The notes under the pieces: generated by a model
Seen by the model: the letters and a program-made list of their open reading frames with translations, nothing else
The model's database searches: none
Told to the model about the DNA's origin: nothing
Part shown: one piece after another, positions 1 to 10,087 of the stretch
Numbering within the stretch: the stretch's first letter is position 1
Layout: each line of letters begins with the position of its first letter
Source of the DNA: a virus
Taxonomy: Duplodnaviria; Heunggongvirae; Uroviricota; Caudoviricetes
IMG/VR virus record: IMGVR_UViG_2619619129_000007
Span: 1 to 10,087 of that record
DNA: 10,087 bases
Strand: one strand, 5' to 3'
Position numbers and translations under genes: made by a program

Positions 1-674
1 ATTTCGCCCAGGGGATCACCATAATAAAATGCTGAGGCCTGGCCTTTGCGTAGTGCACGCATCACCTCAATACCTTTGATGGTGGCGTAAGCCGTCTTCA
101 TGGATTTAAATCCCAGCGTGGCGCCGATTATCCGTTTCAGTTTGCCATGATCGCATTCAATCACGTTGTTCCGGTACTTAATCTGTCGGTGTTCAACGTC
201 AGACGGGCACCGGCCTTCGCGTTTGAGCAGAGCAAGCGCGCGACCATAGGCGGGCGCTTTATCCGTGTTGATGAATCGCGGGATCTGCCACTTCTTCACG
301 TTGTTGAGGATTTTACCCAGAAACCGGTATGCAGCTTTGCTGTTACGACGGGAGGAGAGATAAAAATCGACAGTGCGGCCCCGGCTGTCGACGGCCCGGT
401 ACAGATACGCCCAGCGGCCATTGACCTTCACGTAGGTTTCATCCATGTGCCACGGGCAAAGATCGGAAGGGTTACGCCAGTACCAGCGCAGCCGTTTTTC
501 CATTTCAGGCGCATAACGCTGAACCCAGCGGTAAATCGTGGAGTGATCGACATTCACTCCGCGTTCAGCCAGCATCTCCTGCAGCTCACGGTAACTGATG
601 CCGTATTTGCAGTACCAGCGTACGGCCCACAGAATGATGTCACGCTGAAAATGCCGGCCTTTGAATGGGTTCAT
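1..674 (-). CDS. tnpA: IS26 DDE transposase (Tnp26), 3' end truncated by the window edge
   Basis: Minus-strand ATG at 674-672 translates MNPFKGRHFQRDIILWAVRWYCKYGISYRELQEMLAERGVNVDHSTIYRWVQRYAPEMEKRL... and runs out of the window at ...FYYGDPLGE, with 224 full codons visible. The + strand track ORF 147..860 is its antisense shadow. Confidence 0.9.
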   Translation of the reverse strand, partial: MNPFKGRHFQRDIILWAVRWYCKYGISYRELQEMLAERGVNVDHSTIYRWVQRYAPEMEKRLRWYWRNPSDLCPWHMDETYVKVNGRWAYLYRAVDSRGRTVDFYLSSRRNSKAAYRFLGKILNNVKKWQIPRFINTDKAPAYGRALALLKREGRCPSDVEHRQIKYRNNVIECDHGKLKRIIGATLGFKSMKTAYATIKGIEVMRALRKGQASAFYYGDPLGE

Positions 675-723
675 GTGCAGCTCCATCAGCAAAAGGGGAT
701 GATAAGTTTATCACCACCGACTA

Positions 724-737
724 TTTGCAACAGTGCC
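724..737. repeat. IS26 14-bp terminal inverted repeat (left end, IRL)
   Basis: TTTGCAACAGTGCC on the + strand is the reverse complement of the IS26 terminal repeat GGCACTGTTGCAAA; it sits 63 bp upstream of the transposase ATG, as in IS26. Confidence 0.85.
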
Positions 738-815
738 ATAGATTCTTACGTAGCGTTTCTGGCGTGCATTTTCGGGTGGTTTGTTACTGTTTTTAACGGG
801 GATACGTCAGAAACG

Positions 816-834
816 CGCTCAGGCCGTCTGAGCG
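816..834 (-). terminator. Possible weak terminator hairpin downstream of the 357-aa minus-strand gene
   Basis: CGCTCAG-GCCGT-CTGAGCG gives a 7-bp perfect stem with a 5-nt loop. On the minus strand it is followed by GCGUUUCUGACG, an interrupted U tract, so termination is uncertain. Confidence 0.3.
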
Positions 835-937
835 GTACGCGTAATGAGGCGTTATGGTAAATAGCCTATGCTAATGTCCGCTAAGAGCGAGGAGCAGACG
901 TTGAAGGCTAAAAGAAGGCTACTGAATTTGTGGCGAT

Positions 938-2011
938 TCAGTCTTCATCCGCACAATGTGGGCAGCCCGTATACCTCATTGTCTCGCCCATTGCTTCACA
1001 GGGAGTCCCACAAATTTCACAAGTATCATAGCCTGTATGGATCTCAAGACATCGTGTGCACAGGAAGTTCTCGCCAAACACACAGACCGTTTCATGGCCC
1101 TCACAGTGAGCGCAATTTGCTAGGCCATCGGGATACATCATTTCGTCCACATGACGAAAATTCTCCTCATCAAGCAAGTTATACCTTGAGAGTTCTGCGT
1201 TACAGGTGCGGCAGATGAAGGTATCGTCATCTTCTTCTTCCACCGGCAGAACCTGGTCTGTATCACACTCAGGACAGGTAAACTTTACATGGCGCTCTGA
1301 GTGAAAACAGACGCGACAAGTTTGCTCATAAACGGTAGGACCGTTCTTCCCGACGGCAAGAATTTCCATGATGGCTGCTGGCTTGTGGCAAATGGTGCAG
1401 GGATGAAATTCAGCGCCCTCAGTCGCAAGTTGTTCCAGCTCGGGCTGGATATGTTTCAGACGGGCTTCGGCATAAAACTCGTTGCCTCGCAGGAGTTGTG
1501 TTTCACCTAATGCCAGTGCCCAGTTGTGTGGTGAAGCAAAATGCTGTTGCCAGTCTTCACGCATTAGTCGGTTCAGTGCAAACCATGCCCGAGCCTGTTC
1601 AGCCAGAATGGTCTCCACCTCAGAATCACTAAAAGCTGTATGAAAGAAATGAACTACACGGTTTCGGTGATTGCGAATGGTATTAAACACAGCTTCGGTT
1701 TCTTTAGGCAGGGGCTTTTCAAGGATATCCCTCAACCGGGTACAGACATCATCAAAGGACACCGACTGAAAATCACCGGCAAGGTAGCTTTTACGCGATA
1801 CTTTTTTACCGCTGCAGACCAGCGTCCAGTGTTCGCTGGCAAGGGGTACCTTGAGCAAAATTTCTACAGCTATCCAGAAACTAACTACCGAGTGTTTGTA
1901 CTGTTTGGCCTCGAACTCTTCACGTGCCTTATCCAGAAAATCCATGCCATTCTTAATGAGAGCCGCCACATCAGCTGCGAGAGGGGCAGGTAATTTTGTT
2001 CGTGTATGCAT
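938..2011 (-). CDS. Hypothetical protein (357 aa): N-terminal alpha-helical HEPN-like domain (candidate RNase motif R-N-R-V-V-H) plus four tandem C-terminal Cys4 zinc ribbons; candidate defence/abortive-infection effector
   Basis: Long uninterrupted minus-strand ORF. Preferred start is the ATG at 2011 (MHTRTKL...), preceded by GGAG with 6-nt spacing; the track's GTG at 2029 is 6 codons upstream. Residues 116-121 are RNRVVH, fitting the Rx4-6H HEPN motif. The C-terminal 150 aa carry eight CxxC pairs (CTIC, CRVC, CPEC, CRTC, CAHC, CTRC, CEIC, CPHC). No named family recognised. Confidence 0.8.
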   Translation of the reverse strand: MHTRTKLPAPLAADVAALIKNGMDFLDKAREEFEAKQYKHSVVSFWIAVEILLKVPLASEHWTLVCSGKKVSRKSYLAGDFQSVSFDDVCTRLRDILEKPLPKETEAVFNTIRNHRNRVVHFFHTAFSDSEVETILAEQARAWFALNRLMREDWQQHFASPHNWALALGETQLLRGNEFYAEARLKHIQPELEQLATEGAEFHPCTICHKPAAIMEILAVGKNGPTVYEQTCRVCFHSERHVKFTCPECDTDQVLPVEEEDDDTFICRTCNAELSRYNLLDEENFRHVDEMMYPDGLANCAHCEGHETVCVFGENFLCTRCLEIHTGYDTCEICGTPCEAMGETMRYTGCPHCADED

Positions 2012-2481
2012 CCTGATCTCCGTTATCACGGGGGGCCGGCAGCTGCTGCAGAGATTAGTGGGTATAGAGGATAAATCTTAGTTGCTGGCTGGCCACCACA
2101 TCGAGGGCAAAGACTTTGGTGTTGACCTCATTGCACTCAAACTTCTCATGCACCATCAGCCATTGCAGGATCTTCGGATGAACAAGGCCATACAACAGGT
2201 GCATTACAAGACTGATCCTACCCAATGTGAGCAAGACCCTAGCGAGGTTATAGTTTCAATAAATTCCGAGCTGAGTCCGCCACAGCACAGTGATTTCGCC
2301 ACCGATTGTAATCTCACTCGATAAAATTAAACACAGTTATTCGCATCATTTCCCGGCTGGCAATGCGTTCACCGTGGATGCCATATTAGATAGCTCCCTT
2401 GGAAACCCTTAACGTCCGCTCCTGGCACAAAGCGGACAGTGATCACCGTTCTTACGACTACTTTCTGACTTCCTTCGTGAC

Positions 2482-2540
2482 TTGCCCTAAGCATGTTGTA
2501 GTGCGATACTTGTAATGACATTTGTAATTACAAGAGGTGT
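2482..2540 (+). promoter_or_regulatory. relBE promoter with relO operator repeats and relB ribosome-binding site
   Basis: TTGCCC (2482-2487), 17-bp spacer, GATACT (2505-2510). This overlaps the tandem operator repeats TTGTAATGACAT and TTGTAATTACAA (2509-2534), followed by AGAGGTG and the relB ATG at 2546. RelB/RelE autoregulation at such repeats is established knowledge. Confidence 0.6.
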
Positions 2541-2545
2541 AAGAC

Positions 2546-2785
2546 ATGGGTAGCATTAACCTGCGTATTGACGATGAACTTAAAGCGCGTTCTTACGCCG
2601 CGCTTGAAAAAATGGGCGTAACTCCTTCTGAAGCGCTTCGTCTCATGCTCGAGTATATCGCTGACAATGAACGCTTGCCGTTCAAACAGACACTCCTGAG
2701 TGATGAAGATGCTGAACTTGTGGAGATAGTGAAAGAACGGCTTCGTAAGCCTAAGCCAGTACGTGTGACGCTGGATGAACTCTGA
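2546..2785 (+). CDS. relB: RelB antitoxin (type II TA, ribbon-helix-helix)
   Basis: 79-aa translation MGSINLRIDDELKARSYAALEKMGVTPSEALRLMLEYIADNERLPFKQTLLSDEDAELVEIVKERLRKPKPVRVTLDEL is near-identical to E. coli K-12 RelB as I recall it. Its stop overlaps the relE start (TGATG). Confidence 0.93.
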   Translation: MGSINLRIDDELKARSYAALEKMGVTPSEALRLMLEYIADNERLPFKQTLLSDEDAELVEIVKERLRKPKPVRVTLDEL

Positions 2786-3072
2786 TGGCGTATTTTCTGG
2801 ATTTTGACGAGCGGGCACTAAAGGAATGGCGAAAGCTGGGCTCGACGGTACGTGAACAGTTGAAAAAGAAGCTGGTTGAAGTACTTGAGTCACCCCGGAT
2901 TGAAGCAAACAAGCTCCGTGGTATGCCTGATTGTTACAAGATTAAGCTCCGGTCTTCAGGCTATCGCCTTGTATACCAGGTTATAGACGAGAAAGTTGTC
3001 GTTTTCGTGATTTCTGTTGGGAAAAGAGAACGCTCGGAAGTATATAGCGAGGCGGTCAAACGCATTCTCTGA
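2785..3072 (+). CDS. relE: RelE toxin (ribosome-dependent mRNA interferase)
   Basis: 95-aa translation MAYFLDFDERALKEWRKLGSTVREQLKKKLVEVLESPRIEANKLRGMPDCYKIKLRSSGYRLVYQVIDEKVVVFVISVGKRERSEVYSEAVKRIL matches E. coli RelE in length and sequence from memory; translationally coupled to relB. Confidence 0.93.
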   Translation: MAYFLDFDERALKEWRKLGSTVREQLKKKLVEVLESPRIEANKLRGMPDCYKIKLRSSGYRLVYQVIDEKVVVFVISVGKRERSEVYSEAVKRIL

Positions 3073-3143
3073 ACCAAAGCATGACATCTCTGTTTCGCAC
3101 CGAAGGTGACACTTCTGCTTTGCGTTGACAGGAGAAGCAGGCT

Positions 3144-3299
3144 ATGAAGCAGCAAAAGGCGATGTTAATCGCCCTGATCGTCATCTGTTTAACCGTCATA
3201 GTGACGGCACTGGTAACGAGGAAAGACCTCTACGAGGTACGAATCCGAACCGGCCAGACGGAGGTCGCTGTCTTCACAGCTTACGAACCTGAGGAGTAA
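3144..3299 (+). CDS. hokD: Hok-family type I membrane toxin (HokD/RelF-like, 51 aa), third gene of the relBEF operon; carries Tyr at the usually conserved Cys position
   Basis: Not in the ORF track (under 60 aa). ATG at 3144 preceded by GGAGAAG; translation MKQQKAMLIALIVICLTVIVTALVTRKDLYEVRIRTGQTEVAVFTAYEPEE. Hok/Gef proteins normally read RKDLCEV here; this copy has TAC (Tyr). Confidence 0.85.
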   Translation: MKQQKAMLIALIVICLTVIVTALVTRKDLYEVRIRTGQTEVAVFTAYEPEE

Positions 3300-3306
3300 G
3301 AGACCA

Positions 3307-3328
3307 GGCGAGGGAGAAATCCCTCGCC
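3307..3328 (+). other. Stable GNRA-tetraloop hairpin in the hokD 3' untranslated region (possible fold-back/stability element)
   Basis: GGCGAGGGA-GAAA-TCCCTCGCC: 9-bp perfect stem closed by a GAAA loop, 8 nt after the hokD stop, with no U tract following. Confidence 0.5.
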
Positions 3329-3367
3329 ACCTCTGATGAGTCAGGCATCCTCAACGCACCCGCACTT

Positions 3368-3394
3368 AACCCGCTTCGGCGGGTTTTGTTTTTT
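3368..3394 (+). terminator. Rho-independent terminator ending the relB-relE-hokD operon
   Basis: CCCGC-TTCG-GCGGG stem-loop (3370-3383) followed by TTTTGTTTTTT. Confidence 0.65.
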
Positions 3395-3466
3395 CCTGGC
3401 ATTCTGGTTTACAATTCGCACGCCAGCCTGAACAACTGGCACCTGCTGCGCCAGCAGAGACAACCG

Positions 3467-3745
3467 ATGGCGCACGATACCAAATTACACAATTCTGATG
3501 ATTCTGCCGTCTTTGCCAGCAGGCACGGGCGGCGTTCCCGCACTTTCAAATCTGACTGGTTCCAGCATCCCCCATGCACTGAAGAACAGGCCGAGTGGCT
3601 AATTCAGTGCTACCGCAGACACGGATACGAGATTAAGAAAGCCCTCAGCCTCGATTATCGTCACTGGATAATCTCCGTCAGGCTTCCTTACTCCGAGCGC
3701 CCACCGCGTCCGTCCCGCACATACCAGCAACGGATCTGGAGGTAA
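3467..3745 (+). CDS. Hypothetical small protein, Rem-like by position (between hokD and ydfU as in K-12 Qin)
   Basis: ORF MAHDTKLHNSDDSAVFASRHGRRSRTFKSDWFQHPPCTEEQAEWLIQCYRRHGYEIKKALSLDYRHWIISVRLPYSERPPRPSRTYQQRIWR. The first in-frame ATG is at 3467; the track's 3386 start is a TTG inside the terminator U tract. The stop lies within GGAGGTAACGTG, which supplies the RBS and GTG start of the next gene. Identity to rem is positional only. Confidence 0.5.
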   Translation: MAHDTKLHNSDDSAVFASRHGRRSRTFKSDWFQHPPCTEEQAEWLIQCYRRHGYEIKKALSLDYRHWIISVRLPYSERPPRPSRTYQQRIWR

Positions 3746-3746
3746 C

Positions 3747-4796
3747 GTGCGGATATTACTTCGACCTGTTCTGGTACCGGAACTCGGGCTTGTGGTCCTT
3801 AGGCCGGGCTGTGAATCCATGCAAGTATTTCATAACCCTCGAGTGCTGGTGGAGCCTGAACCGAAAAGCATGCGTAATCTGCCGTCCGGGGTCGTTCCTG
3901 CCGTTCGCCAGCCGCTAGTGGAAGACAAAACATTGCTGCCGTTTTTCAGTAACGCACGGGTGATTCGTGCTGCTGGTGGTGCTGGTGCATTGTCTGACTG
4001 GCTGTTGCGCCATATTAAATCCTGCCAGTGGCCACACGGCGATTATCATCACAGCGAAACCGTCATTCACCGTTATGGTACCGGCGCAATGGTGTTGTGC
4101 TGGCACTGCGACAACCAGTTGCGTGACCAGACATCCGAATCACTCGAGCAACTTGCTCATCAAAACCTGTCAGCATGGATGATTGACGTCATCGGTCACG
4201 CAATAAGCGGTACGCAGGAGCGTGAATTATCTCTGGCTGAATTATCCTGGTGGGCGGTCCGCAATCAGGTGGCGGACGCGCTACCGGAAGCGGTATTACG
4301 TCGTTCGCTGGGGTTGCGTGCGGAAAAAATCCGCTCAATGTACCGTGAAAGCGACATCGTGCCGGGAGAGCAGACCGCCACCAGCATACTGAAACAGCGC
4401 ACAAAAAATCTTGCGCCGCTGCCTCACGCCCACCAGCAACAGAACCCACCACAGGAAAAGACGGTGGTCAGCATTGCCGTTGATCCTGAGTCTCCGGAAT
4501 CTTTCATGAAACGACCTAAACGTCGCCGCTGGGTTAACGAGAAATACACACGCTGGGTGAAGACACAGCCGTGTGCGTGTTGTGGTAAGCCAGCCGACGA
4601 TCCCCATCACCTGATTGGTCATGGTCAGGGCGGAATGGGGACAAAATCTCACGATATTTTCACGCTACCGCTGTGTCGGGAGCATCACAACGAGCTTCAT
4701 GCGGATCCGCTGGCGTTCGAAGAAAAGCATGGTTCTCAGGTTGATTTAATTTTTCGTTTTCTTGATCACGCCTTTGCAACTGGCGTGCTTGGGTAA
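3747..4796 (+). CDS. ydfU: DUF968-family protein (YdfU-like), with a C-terminal HNH-like Cys/His motif
   Basis: 349-aa ORF from a GTG at 3747 with GGAGG 5 nt upstream. The C-terminus carries CACCGKPADDPHHLIGHGQGG...CREHHNELH. Length and position match my recollection of K-12 Qin ydfU. Confidence 0.72.
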   Translation: MRILLRPVLVPELGLVVLRPGCESMQVFHNPRVLVEPEPKSMRNLPSGVVPAVRQPLVEDKTLLPFFSNARVIRAAGGAGALSDWLLRHIKSCQWPHGDYHHSETVIHRYGTGAMVLCWHCDNQLRDQTSESLEQLAHQNLSAWMIDVIGHAISGTQERELSLAELSWWAVRNQVADALPEAVLRRSLGLRAEKIRSMYRESDIVPGEQTATSILKQRTKNLAPLPHAHQQQNPPQEKTVVSIAVDPESPESFMKRPKRRRWVNEKYTRWVKTQPCACCGKPADDPHHLIGHGQGGMGTKSHDIFTLPLCREHHNELHADPLAFEEKHGSQVDLIFRFLDHAFATGVLG

Positions 4797-4808
4797 AAGA
4801 GGTGACTG

Positions 4809-5165
4809 ATGCTCATAGATTTGGTTTTACCTTACCCACCGACGGTGAACACTTACTGGCGACGCCGTGGCAGCACATATTTTATCTCGGAGGAGGGAAA
4901 GCGTTATCGCCGGGCTGTGGCGCTTATTGTTCGCCAGCAGCGGCTGAAATTAAGCCTGTCCGGAAGGCTGGCGATAAAGGTGATTGCAGAGCCACCGGAT
5001 AAGCGTCGTCGCGACCTGGACAATATCCTGAAAGCACCGCTGGATGCGCTGACGCATGCGGGAGTGTTAATGGACGATGAGCAGTTTGATGAAATCAATA
5101 TCGTTCGTGGTCAGCCAGTATCTGGTGGACGTCTGGGGGTGAAGATTTACCCCATAATGCATTAA
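4809..5165 (+). CDS. rusA: RusA-family Holliday junction resolvase
   Basis: 118-aa translation contains PPDKRRRDLDNILKAPLDALTHAGVLMDDEQ, matching the RusA acidic catalytic region and size; RBS AGAGGTG upstream; sits just upstream of Q as in lambdoid phages. Confidence 0.85.
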   Translation: MLIDLVLPYPPTVNTYWRRRGSTYFISEEGKRYRRAVALIVRQQRLKLSLSGRLAIKVIAEPPDKRRRDLDNILKAPLDALTHAGVLMDDEQFDEINIVRGQPVSGGRLGVKIYPIMH

Positions 5166-5179
5166 GAGCAGGTCAAAAA

Positions 5180-6001
5180 ATGAAACTGGAAGATTTACCG
5201 AAATACTACTCCCCAAAATCCCCTGGCCTGACCGATGCATCGGCCTCAACGTCAAAAGATGCGCTGAGTATCACTGATGTGATGGCCGCGCAGGGCATGA
5301 CACAGAATCGGGCTGAGATGGGTTTTTCTGCGTTCCTGGGGAAAATGGGCATCAGTATGAATGACAGGGCGCGGGCAACAGAATTACTGGCAGATTATGC
5401 ACTCAGTCGGTGCGATCGTGTGGCGGCGTTGAGAAAACTTCCGGCAGAAATAAAACCGGTAGTGATGCGCATTATGGCTTCGTACGCTTTTGAGGATTAT
5501 GCCCGTAGCGCAGCGAGTAAAAAGCAGTGCCCTTGTTGCTATGGGGAAAAATTTATTGAAAGCGTAGTTTTTACAAACAAGGTCCAGTATCCGGATGGTA
5601 AGCCGCCGGTATGGGCAAAGTGTACGAAAGGTGTGTATTCGTCTTACTGGGAAGAATGGAAAAAAGTCAGGGAGGTGGTAAAAGTTGCCTGTCCGGAGTG
5701 TGGCGGAAAGGGTGAGGTTTCCACCGCCTGTAAGGATTGCCGTGGGCGTGGTGTCGCCATTCATCGTGAAGAGTCGGTAAAACGTGGTATGCCTGTTATC
5801 AGAGACTGCCAGCGTTGTGGTGGTCGTGGCTATGAAAGACTACCATCAACGGAGGCATTTAATGCTATATGCGAGGTGACAAACCAGATAACACGCGCGT
5901 CATGGGAAAAAACAGTTAAGAAATTCTATGATGCGCTGGTGACCCGGTTTGATGTTGAAGAAGCATGGGCTGAGCGGCAGTTAAAAAAGGTAACTAGGTA
6001 A
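5180..6001 (+). CDS. Late-gene antitermination protein Q-like (273 aa) with DnaJ-like CxxCxGxG zinc-finger repeats
   Basis: Located between rusA and a pR'/tR'-like promoter-terminator pair. Contains CPCCYGEKF, CPECGGKGEV, CKDCRGRGV and CQRCGGRGYE. Assignment rests on position and these motifs, not on an alignment. Confidence 0.7.
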   Translation: MKLEDLPKYYSPKSPGLTDASASTSKDALSITDVMAAQGMTQNRAEMGFSAFLGKMGISMNDRARATELLADYALSRCDRVAALRKLPAEIKPVVMRIMASYAFEDYARSAASKKQCPCCYGEKFIESVVFTNKVQYPDGKPPVWAKCTKGVYSSYWEEWKKVREVVKVACPECGGKGEVSTACKDCRGRGVAIHREESVKRGMPVIRDCQRCGGRGYERLPSTEAFNAICEVTNQITRASWEKTVKKFYDALVTRFDVEEAWAERQLKKVTR

Positions 6002-6006
6002 CAAGG

Positions 6007-6034
6007 TTGATTTTTCCGGAATCTGTGGTAAATT
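6007..6034 (+). promoter_or_regulatory. Candidate late promoter pR' (extended -10) immediately downstream of Q
   Basis: TTGATT (6007-6012), 16-bp spacer, TGgTAAATT (6026-6034), placed as pR' is in lambdoid phages. Confidence 0.5.
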
Positions 6035-6082
6035 CGTCATAATAATGGGCTTTTTATGCCTGACGTTAGAAGAGTTTCTACA

Positions 6083-6107
6083 ACCCGCCGCCGAGCGGGT
6101 TTTTTAT
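6083..6107 (+). terminator. tR'-like intrinsic terminator (expected Q antitermination target)
   Basis: CCCGC-CGCCGA-GCGGG hairpin followed by TTTTTTATT, about 60 nt downstream of the candidate pR'. Confidence 0.6.
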
Positions 6108-6144
6108 TGCGGAATTAATTACGGACCGTTATTATTCTGCTCCC

Positions 6145-6220
6145 GGCCCTTTAGCTCAGTGGTGAGAGCGAGCGACTCATAATCGCCAGGTCGCTGGTTC
6201 AAATCCAGCAAGGGCCACCA
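6145..6220 (+). tRNA. ileZ: tRNA with CAU anticodon, ileX/ileZ-like (tRNA-Ile2, lysidine-type; tRNA-Met not excluded), CCA encoded
   Basis: Manual cloverleaf: acceptor GGCCCTT/AAGGGCC, D-arm GCTC...GAGC, anticodon loop CTCATAA (CAT at 6178-6180), T-arm GCTGG-TTCAAAT-CCAGC, discriminator A plus CCA. Resembles E. coli ileX from memory. Confidence 0.85.
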
Positions 6221-6320
6221 TCACAAACCGCCATTAGCTTATCAGGAAGAGCAGACGACACGATAACAGGGTTGTTGGTGCGGGGGCGGGTCCCCGATGG
6301 CGGTCCATTATCGGTATTCA

Positions 6321-6394
6321 GCGTTGTTAGCTCAGCCGGACAGAGCAATTGCCTTCTAAGCAATCGGTCACTGGTTCGAATCCAGTACAGCGCG
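6321..6394 (+). tRNA. argO: tRNA-Arg (anticodon UCU), argO-like, CCA not encoded
   Basis: Manual cloverleaf: acceptor GCGTTGT/ACAGCGC (one G-U pair), anticodon stem ATTGC/GCAAT, loop CTTCTAA (TCT at 6355-6357), T-arm ACTGG-TTCGAAT-CCAGT, discriminator G. Confidence 0.85.
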
Positions 6395-6534
6395 CTATAT
6401 TCATTCTTCCAGATTCCTTCCGGCAGAGCCTTATACTGAAATATACCTGGCTCAGGATATTGTTGAAAATATTTTATGTTTGTCAAAAATAAAAGTTCTG
6501 TTAAGTATTGATTGAGTGTTTGTTATACGGTCTA

Positions 6535-6861
6535 ATGGTTTTTTCAGCATTAAATATTTATCATTCATATGGTGTGGGTAGAGTGAATATTGATGAGGCG
6601 TCGGGGTGTTTCATCCTTAGGCAGCGTATTGATATAGTCAATGCAGGACGAGCAAAGGCCTTCAGCCGTTTGACAGTTTTGTTCTGTACTCCTGATCGTC
6701 TTTCGGGAAGAGACGTTATTATTCTGAATAGTGATGCTATACAGAGGGTTTGCGATGAGTTCATGGTTGCTAATTCAGAATTATTTGCTCTTGTTCAGGA
6801 GTACAACAGAATAGCCAGGACCTGTGGTATGGATGAACTTCGGATTACTCATCTGGGGTAG
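6535..6861 (+). CDS. Hypothetical cargo protein (about 108 aa), unrecognised
   Basis: ORF in moderately AT-rich DNA after tRNA-Arg. First in-frame ATG at 6535 (track start 6508 is a TTG); in-frame GTGs at 6574 and 6583 are alternatives. Candidate promoter TTGTCA-N16-TAAGTA at about 6478-6505. No family recognised; coding status unproven. Confidence 0.4.
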   Translation: MVFSALNIYHSYGVGRVNIDEASGCFILRQRIDIVNAGRAKAFSRLTVLFCTPDRLSGRDVIILNSDAIQRVCDEFMVANSELFALVQEYNRIARTCGMDELRITHLG

Positions 6862-7253
6862 ATACATATCTGGATTATCACTTGTTACGGTAAAAAGTGA
6901 TTGCTTACTGTTTTTGTGAGTGGCATTGCAGCAGCCGGATAATGTCAGTGCTGGCTGACGGTGTGCTGGTGGCGGGTGTGGTGGTTGTTGCTTTCCCGTT
7001 GCTGAAAAAGAAAACGCCAGACTGTTAGCCGGGTATCAGTTAGCGGGAGAAATTTTTAAATACTTCACAATTCAGGCGGTTGACTGTTGTCTGGTTTGCG
7101 GGGAGTTTGTTAAAAGAAACTGGCATGGTGAATCCCCCTGTGCGGAGGGGCAATCAGCGAGTAGGTATATGGGATAATCGCGGATTCAGGTGCTGGTACT
7201 GAATTCACCGGGAGGCACCCGGCACCATGCAATGGCACATAGCGCCACTCTCC

Positions 7254-7290
7254 AGCCCCTCTCCGGAGGGGCTGTTTATATTGATTTTGT
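7254..7290 (+). terminator. Strong intrinsic terminator closing the plus-strand cargo unit
   Basis: AGCCCCTC-TCCG-GAGGGGCT: 8-bp perfect stem, followed on the + strand by GTTTATATTGATTTTGT. No U tract on the minus side. Confidence 0.6.
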
Positions 7291-7308
7291 CAGATGTGAG
7301 TAAACTCC

Positions 7309-7644
7309 TTATGGACTTTGTTGTTTTAGTCCATAAGGACATATTTGCAGAGTGCAACGGTTATTAAAGCATTCATTCAATACGTTATCTGTATTTGTAG
7401 GACATTCCTGGCTGTTTTTGATTAAATTCCAGAATGTTTTATTGAATGGTACTACGTTGTAAATGGTTACAGGTAGCACTTTGTTATTGAGCATGATACC
7501 TGTGTGAGTCAGTGTAAATATACTTTCAGGAGGTAAGAAAGCATCCGATTGATACCAGATTATTAATTTTATTTTACTCCATATGACTGAAAAAGATATT
7601 CCGCATGATGGCTGGATAACTGTATCAATCACAATCCACTTCAT
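7309..7644 (-). CDS. Hypothetical Cys-containing protein (111 aa) in strongly AT-rich DNA, transcribed against the late operon
   Basis: Minus-strand ORF with a good RBS (AAGGAAGCTAA then ATG at 7644). Translation [43 protein letters not shown]...[31 protein letters not shown]. No family recognised. Confidence 0.5.
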
Positions 7645-7904
7645 TTAGCTTCCTTGTTTATGCCTTGCTGGTGATGTTCTGAAAAGTATAAATGATATTT
7701 TTGAATATAAACCATAGAGCAGAATTATTTTTCTGATGTTGTTTATTGTTTATTTAAATGCAGGGTGGTTTATATCTCGTCTTGTAGTTTATCCATGCAT
7801 ATCTGCTTGATGATCAGGTTTCTATTTAAGGTATGGTTTTGTGTTTTTTCTGTGTTACATGTCTGGTATTTTAAAGAATTATTTTTCAGATGGTGGAAAG
7901 AACC

Positions 7905-8093
7905 ATGGCATTTAAACACTATGATGTTGTCAGGGCGGCGCCGCCGTCAGATCTTGCGGAAAAGCTGACACATAAACTGAAAGAGGGCTGGCAGCCGTTT
8001 GGTAGTCCGGTGGCCATAACCCCTTATACCCTGATGCAGGCGATTGCAGCAGAAGGTGATGTGGTGGTCAGTGGTGCAACTGAGCCCGAGTGA
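7905..8093 (+). CDS. Small DUF1737-like phage protein commonly found just upstream of holin genes
   Basis: Translation MAFKHYDVVRAAPPSDLAEKLTHKLKEGWQPFGSPVAITPYTLMQAIAAEGDVVVSGATEPE. Start chosen at the ATG at 7905 (GGAAAG upstream) rather than the track's 7890. Family name recalled from memory. Confidence 0.65.
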   Translation: MAFKHYDVVRAAPPSDLAEKLTHKLKEGWQPFGSPVAITPYTLMQAIAAEGDVVVSGATEPE

Positions 8094-8335
8094 TACTACG
8101 TCATCGTACTGGCCCGGCATTCCAGGCCATAAAAGACAGTCTGGCAGTGGGACTAAATGTACTGACGCTGACGGATATTACCAAAAATGCAACGTATGGC
8201 GTTGAGATAGAAAGTCTGGTGCTGGAGATAAATGCACCGGCATCATCATAAAAAGTGAGCCAGTCAAATGGAAGGTATCGTTAAACTCACCGGTAGTGTC
8301 AGTGGATCGTCTGAGACGCTTGCATGAGTTATCAG

Positions 8336-8368
8336 AGCCATCAGTAGTTAACTGGTGGCTTTTTTATT
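8336..8368 (+). terminator. Intrinsic terminator-like hairpin about 35 bp upstream of the holin start
   Basis: AGCCATCAG-TAGTTAA-CTGGTGGCT: 9-bp stem with one G-U pair, followed by TTTTTTATT. Confidence 0.5.
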
Positions 8369-8400
8369 GTTGTCAGCTTCCGGATAACGGGAGACGGGGT

Positions 8401-8616
8401 ATGGACCAGATGGAAAAAATCACAACAGGTGTGTCATACACCACGTCAGCGGTGGGAACGGGCTACTGGTTCCTGCAGTTGCTGGACAGGGTTTCCCCGT
8501 CTCAGTGGGCGGCAATAGGCGTGCTGGGGAGTCTGCTGTTTGGGCTGCTGACATATCTGACTAACCTGTATTTCAAAATCAGAGAGGACCGTCGTAAGGC
8601 GGCACGGGGAGAGTAA
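8401..8616 (+). CDS. Class II holin of the phage 21 S21 pinholin family (71 aa), with dual-start motif M-D-Q-M
   Basis: Translation [71 protein letters not shown] closely resembles S21 as recalled (...[14 protein letters not shown]...[21 protein letters not shown]). The track ORF from 8296 is an in-frame upstream extension. Confidence 0.88.
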
Positions 8617-8620
8617 TTCA

Positions 8621-8971
8621 ATGACTCAAAACTATGAACTGATTGTGAAAGGGATCCGCAATTTTGAGAATAAAGTTACGGTAACTTTAGCGTTACGGGA
8701 CAAAAAACGCTTTGACGGTGAAATTTTTGACCTGGACATCTCGCTGGACCGTGTTGAAGGTGCCGCGCTGGAGTTTTATGAGGCAGCAGCCAGAATGAGC
8801 ATCAGACAGGTCTTCCTGGATGTTGCTGCCGGGTTATGTGAAGGGGATGAGCAGTCGCCGGAAAAGCGCCCCGTAATTTTAGAGGCGCAGAATGTATGGA
8901 TAACCTACAAAGGAAAGCTACCGGGAAGAATTACTGGTTCTCTGAAGACTCCTCCGGAATCACAACCTTAA
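8621..8971 (+). CDS. Hypothetical protein between holin and endolysin, YdfR-like (possibly DUF1327)
   Basis: 116-aa ORF starting 5 nt after the holin stop: MTQNYELIVKGIRNFENKVTVTLALRDKKRFDGEIFDLDISLDRVEGAALEFYEAAARMSIRQVFLDVAAG... A gene occupies this slot in K-12 Qin (ydfR); family number is from uncertain memory. Confidence 0.6.
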   Translation: MTQNYELIVKGIRNFENKVTVTLALRDKKRFDGEIFDLDISLDRVEGAALEFYEAAARMSIRQVFLDVAAGLCEGDEQSPEKRPVILEAQNVWITYKGKLPGRITGSLKTPPESQP

Positions 8972-9034
8972 GTCACTGACCGGAACAGATAAACCTGTCC
9001 GTGGGCAGAAACCGATAAATCCTGATAAATATCC

Positions 9035-9568
9035 ATGAACGCAAAAATCAGATACGGCCTGTCGGCTGCCGTTCTGGCACTGATTGCCGTCGGTGCGCCC
9101 GCGCCTGATATTCTCGACCAGTTTCTGGATGAAAAAGAAGGTAACCACACAACGGCATACCGCGATGGGTCCGGCATCTGGACCATCTGTCGGGGTGCCA
9201 CGATGGTGGATGGAAAACCCGTTTTTCCCGGTATGAAACTGTCGAAGGAAAAATGCGACCAGGTCAACGCCATTGAGCGTGATAAGGCGCTGGCATGGGT
9301 GGAGCGCAATATTAAAGTACTACTGACCGAACCACAAAAAGCGGGTATAGCGTCATTCTGTCCCTATAACATTGGCCCCGGTAAGTGTTTCCCGTCGACG
9401 TTTTATAAGCGGCTGAATGCCGGTGATCGTAAGGGCGCATGCGAGGCGATTCGCTGGTGGATAAAAGATGGTGGGCGCGATTGCCGCATACGTTCAAATA
9501 ACTGCTATGGACAGGTTATTCGTCGTGACCAGGAAAGCGCATTAGCCTGTTGGGGGATAGAGCAGTGA
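9035..9568 (+). CDS. SAR endolysin (phage lysozyme with N-terminal signal-anchor-release domain), R21/RrrQ-like, 177 aa
   Basis: N-terminal Gly/Ala-rich weakly hydrophobic segment [16 protein letters not shown] followed by a lysozyme-like E...D...T region ([22 protein letters not shown]). Pairs naturally with the pinholin. No obvious SD upstream. Confidence 0.85.
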
Positions 9569-10026
9569 GCAGAGTCGCCGCGATTATTTATGCTTTGGTT
9601 ATCTGCATCATCGTCTGCCTGTCGTGGGCGGTCAATCATTACCGTGATAACGCCATCGCCTACAAAGAACAGCGTGATAAAAAAGTCAGTGAGCTGAAGC
9701 AGTCGATCGCCACCATCGCTGACATGCAGCAGCGTCAGCGTGATGTTGCTGCACTCGATGCAAAGTACTCGAGAGAATTAGCCAATGCGAAAGCTGAAAA
9801 TGAAACTCTGCGCGCTGATGTTGCCGCTGGTCGTCGTCGGTTGCACATCAAAGCAGTCTGTCAGTCAGTGCGTGAAGCCACCACCGCCTCCGGCGTGGAT
9901 AATGCAACCAGCCCCCGACTGGCAGACACCGCTGAACGGGATTATTTCACCCTCAGAGAGAGGCTGATCACTATGCAAAAACAACTGGAAGGAACCCAGA
10001 AGTATATTAATGAGCAGTGCAGATAG
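9562..10026 (+). CDS. Rz inner-membrane spanin (i-spanin), lambda Rz-like
   Basis: From GTG at 9562: [30 protein letters not shown]...[62 protein letters not shown], near-identical to lambda Rz as I recall it; overlaps the endolysin stop. Confidence 0.9.
9785..9967 (+). CDS. Rz1 outer-membrane lipoprotein spanin (o-spanin), embedded in Rz in the +1 frame
   Basis: [60 protein letters not shown]: signal peptide with lipobox (VVGC), proline-rich mature part, fully nested in Rz as in lambda. Confidence 0.85.
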
Positions 10027-10087
10027 AGCTGCCCATATCGATGGGCAACTCATGCAATTATTGTGAGCAATACACACGCGCTTCCAG

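Follow-up and report, generated by a model that had tools for sequence, protein, structure and literature searches.

A segment at about positions 7066 to 7289 (plus strand) of a 10,087-nucleotide stretch of viral DNA (IMG/VR record IMGVR_UViG_2619619129_000007, positions 1 to 10,087; Caudoviricetes), referred to at its full length as the window, very probably represents a prophage-borne small RNA (sRNA) gene of the STnc100 family, the EcOnc05 allele, which likely specifies an Hfq-binding, trans-acting sRNA of about 215 nt. The element is already known, both from a curated family and as a published sRNA. An original prediction, made from the nucleotide letters alone, had proposed either a candidate structured sRNA or a stabilising 3' untranslated region (UTR) from four consecutive stem-loops ending in an intrinsic terminator. 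The first of these proposals was borne out, as the segment proved to be a full-length STnc100 RNA (RF02076) and the same sequence is the Hfq-bound EcOnc05.

Family membership and identity with EcOnc05

An Rfam scan of the window, for which the curated gathering threshold of RF02076 is 47 bits, matched positions 7094-7283 (+) to STnc100 with 132.4 bits (E 1.1e-29) over model positions 1-206 of 206, not truncated, so that the covariance-model search suggested with the original prediction was positive. A core-only covariance model (R1) found a single copy in the window with 102 bits. Between positions 6900 and 7450 no Rfam family besides STnc100 was matched at E values up to 1, and the element is therefore without similarity to a known riboswitch or ribozyme. 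All RF02076 consensus helices (the closing helix, P1, P3, P4 and the terminator hairpin) were seen in both the cmscan alignment and the minimum free energy (MFE) fold. The location also agrees with that of the family, namely Enterobacterales prophage or pathogenicity-island DNA, as the element is flanked by a Q antiterminator, phage tRNAs, DUF1737, holin and lysozyme genes; family copies were found in Klebsiella, Salmonella, Enterobacter, Pantoea and Rahnella, among others. With a terminator at its end and the following gene, iraM, on the opposite strand, the element does not fit a cis-regulatory leader or riboswitch.

The window is 100% identical to the EcOnc05 locus in prophage Sp4 of E. coli O157:H7 Sakai from about position 7066, at the conserved block CACAATTCAG, up to 7273, where the terminator stem ends. 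In this alignment both flanks are unrelated to those in Sakai; the element is therefore a known sRNA allele in a new neighbourhood. Tree et al. 2014 reported EcOnc05 in O157:H7 Sakai as an Hfq-crosslinked RNA with a northern band of ~222 nt (PMC4104026). The northern probe for EcOnc05 in the supplement of that paper is the exact reverse complement of window positions 7152-7186, and the EcOnc05 peak listed by Tree et al. 2014 from Hfq crosslinking and analysis of cDNA (CRAC) maps to about window positions 7155-7263. Published quantitative PCR primers for 'STnc_100' in outer-membrane vesicles match positions 7124-7143 and 7198-7217 exactly. By analogy with the identical Sakai allele, the window copy would be expected to yield a discrete RNA associated with Hfq; the size proposed originally, 100-200 nt ending near 7290, appears slightly short in comparison to the ~222 nt of that allele.

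Thermodynamic stability was not decisive as proof of structure, as the folding energy of the plus strand had a z-score of about -1.9 (5 to 8 of 200 shuffles folded equally well) and the opposite strand scored even lower (z = -3.2). The covariance-model match (E about 1e-29) and the covariation described below are decisive against a chance arrangement.

Conserved core, covariation and a pseudoknot

The four stem-loops of the original prediction were all found in the sequence, each coincides with a helix of the Rfam consensus, and the MFE fold agrees (Table 1). Two of them were redrawn: the ATTCAG/CTGAAT pairing at 7184-7204 is real and constitutes the inner 6 bp of an 8-bp stem formed by GGAUUCAG and CUGAAUUC (7182-7189/7199-7206), and the terminator hairpin, originally given 8 bp and a U tract, has 9 pairs at 7253-7274 followed by a U tract that is interrupted. 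An 8-bp closing helix (7123-7130/7223-7230) and a pseudoknot (7153-7159/7191-7197) had been missed. The closing helix joins P1, the P2 region, P3 and P4 into one multi-helix domain, the core (7123-7230), whose length ranged from 102 to 138 nt among the approximately 59 IMG/VR cluster representatives listed.

Viral copies were obtained by scanning IMG/VR for the P1 pattern (at least 120 loci, at least 121 unique 270-mers and at least about 59 clusters) and genome copies by scanning species-representative genomes for the P4 pattern; of the matches listed for the core-only model, 139 belonged to the viral set and 89 to the genome set. Covariation was tested on 100 distinct viral copies and on the 89 Enterobacterales genome matches. 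In the viral set 92.0% of the cells were paired and 18 of 26 pairs had changed on both sides, in the genome set these values were 90.1% and 21 of 26, and in either set 0 of 500 shuffles scored as high; slid partners reached pairing of at most 50% (viral) and at most 47% (genome). All eight P3 pairs had changed on both sides in both sets (88.6-90.6% of cells paired), as had 6 of 8 and 7 of 8 closing helix pairs in the viral and genome sets, respectively. The original prediction had made its case depend on compensatory changes across homologous loci, and because the closing helix and P3 covary it withstood this comparison. P1 and P4 are almost invariant and therefore hold little covariation information either way: P1 stayed conserved in copies selected by the P4 motif, with few compensated variants, and P4 was paired in 99.8% of cells essentially without variation, being invariant even where it was not used for selection. 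It should be kept in mind that the covariance model had fitted these alignments to the structure; an unfitted MAFFT alignment pointed in the same direction, albeit more weakly (53-64% of cells paired). The MAFFT-only alignment was dropped because P3 and the pseudoknot were out of register, and the covariance-model alignment was used instead.

The pseudoknot between the junction that follows P1 and the P3 loop also covaries and is well supported. In a register-free permutation of partners among 24 diverse representatives, own partners formed a mean of 7.54 contiguous pairs in comparison to 4.75 +/- 0.26 for permuted partners, and 0 of 20,000 permutations were as high. Partner pairs in other copies included CUGGUG/CACCGG, CCAGUC/GACUGG, CUAGGC/GUCUAG, UGCGGC/GCCGCA, AAUGACUG/UGGUCAUU and ACUGGAUA/UAUCCAGU, and that of PasD1, a distant relative from enteropathogenic E. 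coli (EPEC) E2348/69, was AAUGAUC/GAUCAUU. In the window the pseudoknot competes with a small P2 helix of the MFE fold, and it is absent from the structure line printed with the Rfam match. The Storz-laboratory preprint gives an RNAalifold consensus only, and neither the pseudoknot nor the modular build is mentioned in the examined passages of the literature that name STnc100.

Approximately 40 positions were invariant in 30 diverse copies, including GAAUC, the P1-loop GCGG, the GC before P3 and the P4-loop AGGCA, and these positions stayed highly conserved in the Enterobacterales genome copies, whereas the tails are hypervariable. This can also be interpreted to mean that function resides in the pseudoknotted core, which would bind a specific protein or a small ligand (in the manner of a sponge, decoy or aptamer), and that tail pairing through Hfq is secondary. 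The invariant positions, many of them in loops and junctions, set against such variable tails, the compact pseudoknot fold, the recombination of cores with different promoters and tails, and the ribosomal coverage values of the EDL933 copies, which range from 0.04 to 3.2 (PMC5331693), would all suit such an effector. However, it is without a known partner and no protein gene is conserved beside it across contexts, STnc100 is the only Rfam family matched in its surroundings, and the interaction data for PasD map to the tail, so that we regard this explanation as somewhat doubtful in comparison to a trans-acting Hfq-binding sRNA. The invariance of the core, the mosaic exchange and the tandem arrays described below nevertheless leave room for a second, core-specific function. 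We raise only tentatively, as a possibility that falls short of an even chance, that STnc100 is a modular prophage 'platform' in which an almost invariant pseudoknotted 5' domain with its own sequence-specific partner (protein or ligand) is combined with swappable promoters and hypervariable tails, at times in tandem arrays of 3 to 6 copies; if true, STnc100 RNAs would be more than ordinary Hfq-dependent seed-and-terminator sRNAs.

The same alignments bear on a possible small protein encoded by the stretch, such as the partial antisense 'hypothetical protein' of RefSeq, called by the Prokaryotic Genome Annotation Pipeline (PGAP) as a pseudo-coding sequence (pseudo-CDS) at about window positions 7113-7238 (-). 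Open reading frames (ORFs) of 40-50 aa do overlap the element, but relatives carry P2-region indels of many lengths, which are unfit for a conserved frame, and their variation tracks base pairing rather than codons, so that a coding function deserves practically no credit. As originally predicted, the stretch is not covered by any ORF reaching 60 codons; the four that overlap it (40, 42, 50 and 46 aa) were considered for coding potential and rejected, having no Pfam or NCBIfam match. An antisense 'hypothetical protein' CDS likewise lies over PasD1 in E2348/69 (locus L122, 401-799 (-)), and both antisense annotations are probably spurious calls on sRNA DNA. The stretch, where RefSeq has the pseudo-CDS, should be labelled as a non-coding RNA (STnc100/EcOnc05).

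Table 1. Positions in the window of the parts of the STnc100 element and of the neighbouring features.
Feature	Position	Strand	Remarks
-10-like TTAAAT	7056-7061	+	just within 5' edge of conserved module; candidate promoter for ~215-nt form
5' leader of long isoform	7066-7122	+	from northern sizes of alleles with same leader
Conserved CACAATTCAG block	7066-7075	+	sequence conservation in leader
Promoter-like pair in leader	TTGTCT 7087-7092, 18 nt, TGt-TAAAAG ending 7116	+	
A/U-rich UUUGUUAAAAGAAAC	7105-7119	+	three A-R-N triplets; candidate Hfq-binding stretch
Closing helix, 5' strand GCAUGGUG	7123-7130	+	pairs with 7223-7230; Rfam consensus, MFE fold
P1 hairpin CCCCU-GUGCGG-AGGGG	7135-7150 (stem 7135-7139/7146-7150)	+	nearly invariant, including loop GCGG
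Pseudoknot, 5' strand AUCAGCG	7153-7159	+	junction 3' of P1; partner is P3 loop UGCUGGU 7191-7197
Variable P2 region	7160-7181	+	length and sequence differ among copies; ends with invariant GC 7180-7181
P3 hairpin GGAUUCAG-loop-CUGAAUUC	7182-7206	+	loop holds pseudoknot 3' strand 7191-7197
P4 hairpin CCGGG-AGGCA-CCCGG	7208-7222 (stem 7208-7212/7218-7222)	+	invariant
Closing helix, 3' strand CACCAUGC	7223-7230	+	Rfam consensus, covariation
Single-stranded linker AAUGGCACAUAGCGCCACUCUC	7231-7252	+	hypervariable; candidate base-pairing seed
Intrinsic terminator	7253-7289	+	9-bp G+C-rich stem-loop 7253-7274, then interrupted U tract
RusA and Q antiterminator	5180-6001		Q: Pfam Antiterm, 2e-54
tR'-like terminator hairpin AACCCGCCGCCGAGCGGGTT then TTTTATT	6082-6101	+	80 nt after Q, before tRNAs
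tRNA(CAU)	6145-6220	+	Met by ARAGORN, Ile by PGAP (like ileZ)
tRNA-Arg(UCU)	6321-6395	+	as in Stx phages
117-aa ORF, TTG start	6508-6861	+	cargo slot where stx sits in Stx phages
DUF3927 gene	6897-7028	+	38 nt upstream of CACAATTCAG
iraM	7309-7644	-	convergent to sRNA
DUF1737, then holin and lysozyme			downstream of iraM

Transcript ends, linker and proposed action

By analogy with relatives, a window transcript of roughly 215 nt is predicted, with its ends at about 7058-7069 and about 7280: the identical Sakai allele of ~222 nt places the 5' end near 7058-7069, and alleles with the CACAATTCAG leader, which the window has, run long by northern analysis (~222 nt for EcOnc05 and 235/247 nt for EcOnc27; PMC4104026). 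Two 5'-end classes were recognised in the family, the long CACAATTCAG-leader type and a type starting at the closing helix. A -10-like hexamer stands upstream of CACAATTCAG in most contexts, identity with Sakai Sp4 starts at about 7054 despite different upstream genes, and the EcOnc27 Hfq-CRAC peak begins 41 nt upstream of the closing helix; TTAAAT may serve as the promoter of the window copy. For the second class, many subfamilies have a sigma-70-like promoter, TTGACA-18-TAAATT for example, with a -10 hexamer whose last base lies 7-10 nt ahead of UGGUG (31 of 52 distinct upstream regions). The near-consensus TTGACA-18-TAAATT keeps a fixed distance of 7 nt to the closing helix in subfamilies other than that of the window. 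By RNA-seq, the PasD1 transcript begins with the first G of this helix, 7 nt after TTGACT-18-TAAAAA, and the observed sizes of PasD1 (173 nt) and EcOnc06 (~177 nt) agree with such a start. A start at the closing helix was rejected for the window allele, as the sizes of CACAATTCAG-leader RNAs argue for an end ~55 nt further upstream, but a shorter form of ~160 nt from the internal signal TTGTCT-18-TGt-TAAAAG is possible. The TTGACT element of the original prediction indeed lacks a convincing -10 (none at 17-18 nt), its coordinates being one base off (7080-7085). The 5' end could also arise by processing rather than as a primary start.

Within the leader, the stretch UUUGUUAAAAGAAAC is rich in A-R-N triplets, the kind of sequence that Hfq binds, and is a candidate site. 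RNAalifold found no consensus helix in 17 leaders, though sequence blocks are conserved. A hairpin seen by eye in several alleles (CAGGC 7073-7077/GUCUG 7089-7093) was accordingly discarded, having no consensus pair in this set, as was a leader-linker helix of the MFE fold (GGGGAGU 7100-7106/ACUCUCC 7246-7252), which showed no covariation (5.17 in comparison to 5.36 permuted).

The absence of a good sigma-70 promoter before 7066 would be expected if the RNA were instead a structured 3' UTR processed from the upstream cargo transcript (DUF3927 and co-transcribed genes) by RNase cleavage near CACAAUUCAG, with the terminator as its 3' end. DUF3927 also lies 34-41 nt upstream of PasD1, PasD2 and an EDL933 copy, and 38 nt upstream of CACAATTCAG in the window, and the EcOnc27 CRAC peak begins inside the stx2B-proximal leader. 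On the other hand, the identical module in Sakai Sp4 follows a tRNA gene and a terminator hairpin that would stop upstream transcription, and elsewhere the module is preceded by stx2B or by a further STnc100 copy that has a terminator itself. Other subfamilies, moreover, have the TTGACA-18-TAAATT promoter 7 nt before the closing helix, and the 5' end of PasD1 matches a promoter of this kind. As the module is conserved behind such unrelated upstream sequences (DUF3927, a tRNA terminator, stx2B, a further copy), a self-contained unit is favoured and we consider a processed 3' UTR unlikely.

The terminator hairpin of this unit (CAGCCCCUC-UCCG-GAGGGGCUG, 7253-7274) has 9 pairs, 7 of them G-C; its stem is common to 43 of the at least 121 unique relatives listed, and identity with Sakai Sp4 ends at 7273, directly after it. 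Such a strong stem, together with the position of copies, which in the loci examined have the late regulator on one side and the lysis genes on the other (sometimes 3 to 6 in tandem, and many with their own terminator), could mean that the element works at the level of transcription, as a terminator or insulator in the late-operon leader that silences the lysis genes without Q, the RNA being a by-product. However, a terminator needs no covarying, pseudoknotted domain of 108 nt upstream, terminators have been swapped among copies where the core was kept, and the RNA accumulates and binds Hfq, with many partners for PasD in RIL-seq (ligation and sequencing of RNAs that interact), all of which makes insulation as the main function very improbable.

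For the trans-acting sRNA favoured here, the linker between core and terminator (7231-7252) is the candidate point of contact. It differs completely among family members and is spanned by the EcOnc05 Hfq-CRAC peak. PasD1 and PasD2 have their RIL-seq seed, UGUGAG, in the corresponding segment (PMC8550237), and by analogy the linker may act as the seed in the window allele. The RNA would act in trans by Hfq-dependent base pairing through this linker upstream of the terminator, and the pseudoknotted 5' domain would be a conserved scaffold that stabilises the RNA or binds a partner. In the lysogen the terminator might also stop transcription from the upstream cargo genes, insulating the late operon, and on induction Q-modified polymerase would read through it; such read-through is the established mechanism of lambda Q.

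Several observations weigh against this interpretation. Both candidate promoters are poor sigma-70 matches, TTAAAT having no convincing -35 and TAAAAG being without the final T. The U tract has only three U before its first interruption (UUUAUAUUGAUUUUG), which is suboptimal for both termination and Hfq binding. The linker, P2 region and leader had no significant pairing match with the mRNAs of the window (iraM, DUF3927, Q, holin and others), and pairing to the start regions of neighbouring genes was set aside as no z-score fell below -1.3. A simple seed-plus-terminator model does not account for the extreme degree to which P1 and P4 are invariant in sequence. Published functional data for the family are thin as well: overexpression of sRNA103/EcOnc27, the only relative with phenotype data, raises fimZ and espA transcripts, and otherwise there is an in-silico match to stxB.

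Genomic setting and comparison with known relatives

The element lies in a lambdoid prophage late region in which Q, the tRNAs, DUF3927, the sRNA, convergent iraM and the lysis genes follow one another (Table 1). The strong terminator-like hairpin at 6082-6101 had no Rfam match, and its position is that of the tR' site, where the lambdoid short PR' transcript (6S RNA, StxS) ends. tRNA genes also adjoin STnc100 copies in several other genera (loci L006, L010, L011, L130 and L163). The 117-aa ORF at 6508-6861, within which there is a terminator-like hairpin (6697-6715), had no Pfam or NCBIfam match and is left unannotated in the RefSeq locus of identical sequence. The pairing of a DUF3927 gene (43-55 aa) with an sRNA is recurrent, being found in the window, with PasD1/PasD2 (E2348/69, L122 162-320) and with an EDL933 copy (L245 667-834). 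A perfect 12-bp inverted repeat at 7306-7339 (TCCTTATGGACT and AGTCCATAAGGA, 10-nt loop) overlaps the iraM stop codon (7309-7311) and may be an iraM terminator or 3' stabiliser; on the minus strand it is not followed by a T run.

A 501-bp stretch (6900-7400) was matched in 2,860 of 5,426 complete E. coli genomes, at a median of 2 and up to 12 places per genome. In the two Pantoea loci examined, a DUF1133 gene immediately precedes the copies at L177 and an Rz1-like lysis gene follows those at L163. Arrays of 3 to 6 STnc100-type copies in tandem occur at L163 3116-4485 (-), L177 950-1988 (-) (plasmid pAPP145_2 of Pantoea sp. App145), L054, L006, L174 and L176, and many of the copies have their own terminator. 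The arrays are situated between a Q-like DUF1133 gene and lysis genes, and this includes a 400-kb Pantoea plasmid. Some E. coli loci have a strong, a weak PasD-like and a strong copy in a row (L010 3150, 3374 and 3618). Full STnc100 cores on tiny non-enterobacterial contigs, one of 388 nt (L148, Prolixibacteraceae JC049) and one of 377 nt with a coverage of 0.73 (L197, Halomonas elongata), most likely reflect assembly contamination; other pattern matches outside the Enterobacterales (Streptomyces and others) were not matched by the covariance model.

Relatives adjoin stx2, where sequence variants have been statistically linked to the risk of haemolytic uraemic syndrome (PMC12711010). As the stretch is widespread in E. 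coli and relatives lie beside stx2, the family is relevant to the rewiring of host regulation by prophages. This relevance was already known and the window copy adds nothing unexpected to it; the new points are modest and structural, namely the pseudoknot, the two 5'-end classes and the mosaic exchange of promoter, core and tail, which could guide mutational work on the STnc100 family.

In comparison to EcOnc05 of Sakai, the window element has the same sequence from CACAATTCAG to the terminator stem, is a member of the same Rfam family and likewise lies downstream of phage ileZ/arg tRNAs in the late region. The Sakai copy, however, follows an argO tRNA terminator and faces the convergent sRNA EcOnc08, whereas the window copy follows DUF3927 and faces iraM. 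Since the flanks differ, the U tract differs also (UGUUUAUAUUG in the window, UUUCUUAUGG in Sakai). EcOnc27/sRNA103 of the Stx2 phage Sp5/933W, downstream of stx2B, shares the Rfam family (207.7 bits), the CACAATTCAG leader, the core and the kind of terminator, and binds Hfq; its 247-nt band is listed as destabilised, in a column that according to the text of the paper denotes loss of Hfq (PMC4104026). It has its own P2 region, pseudoknot (CUGGUG/UACCAG) and linker, and therefore presumably different targets. EcOnc27 faces the convergent anti-sRNA AsxR, which the window copy lacks: at the gathering threshold the window had no match to AsxR or AgvB (RF02703/RF02702), nor did positions 6900-7450 when E values up to 1 were admitted, whereas the positive control in Sakai Sp5 was found. 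STnc100 copies of enterohaemorrhagic E. coli usually face AsxR, AgvB or EcOnc08, and in the window iraM takes that place. In EDL933 eleven STnc100 copies have been reported, of which STnc100_4 was northern-positive (PMC5331693).

PasD1 and PasD2 of EPEC E2348/69 (Pearl Mizrahi et al. 2021; Zhu, Shabalina & Storz 2026 preprint) have the closing helix, P3 and the pseudoknot in common with the window element, follow a DUF3927 gene and carry their seed between core and terminator. Their stability is Hfq-dependent and many RIL-seq partners have been reported (PMC8550237). They differ in degenerate P1 and P4 hairpins, in the TTGACT-18-TAAAAA promoter with a 173-nt transcript from the closing helix, and in the tail and terminator, the linker and terminator of the window being unrelated to those of PasD1. 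With model R1, PasD1 scored 31.6 bits in comparison to 102 bits for the window, and it has no Rfam STnc100 match at threshold; the PasD seed UGUGAG and terminator GGCUGCGCAUGGCGCGGCC are absent from the window element. Given the different tails, and the score of PasD below the Rfam threshold, the window element is not PasD. A mosaic allele in EDL933 (L245 868-1060; NZ_CP008957 about 1642567-1642760) combines a core near-identical to that of the window with a PasD-type promoter (TTGATT-18-TAAAAA) and a PasD-type terminator (GGCTGCGCATGGCGCGGCC), and promoter, core and tail have therefore been exchanged as modules.

The element can finally be compared with lambdoid moron transcription units, as described by Juhala et al. 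2000 (cited in PMC4104026). Like these, it is a self-contained cassette between PR'/Q and the lysis genes with its own terminator; morons carry protein genes as cargo, whereas the cargo in the window is a non-coding RNA.

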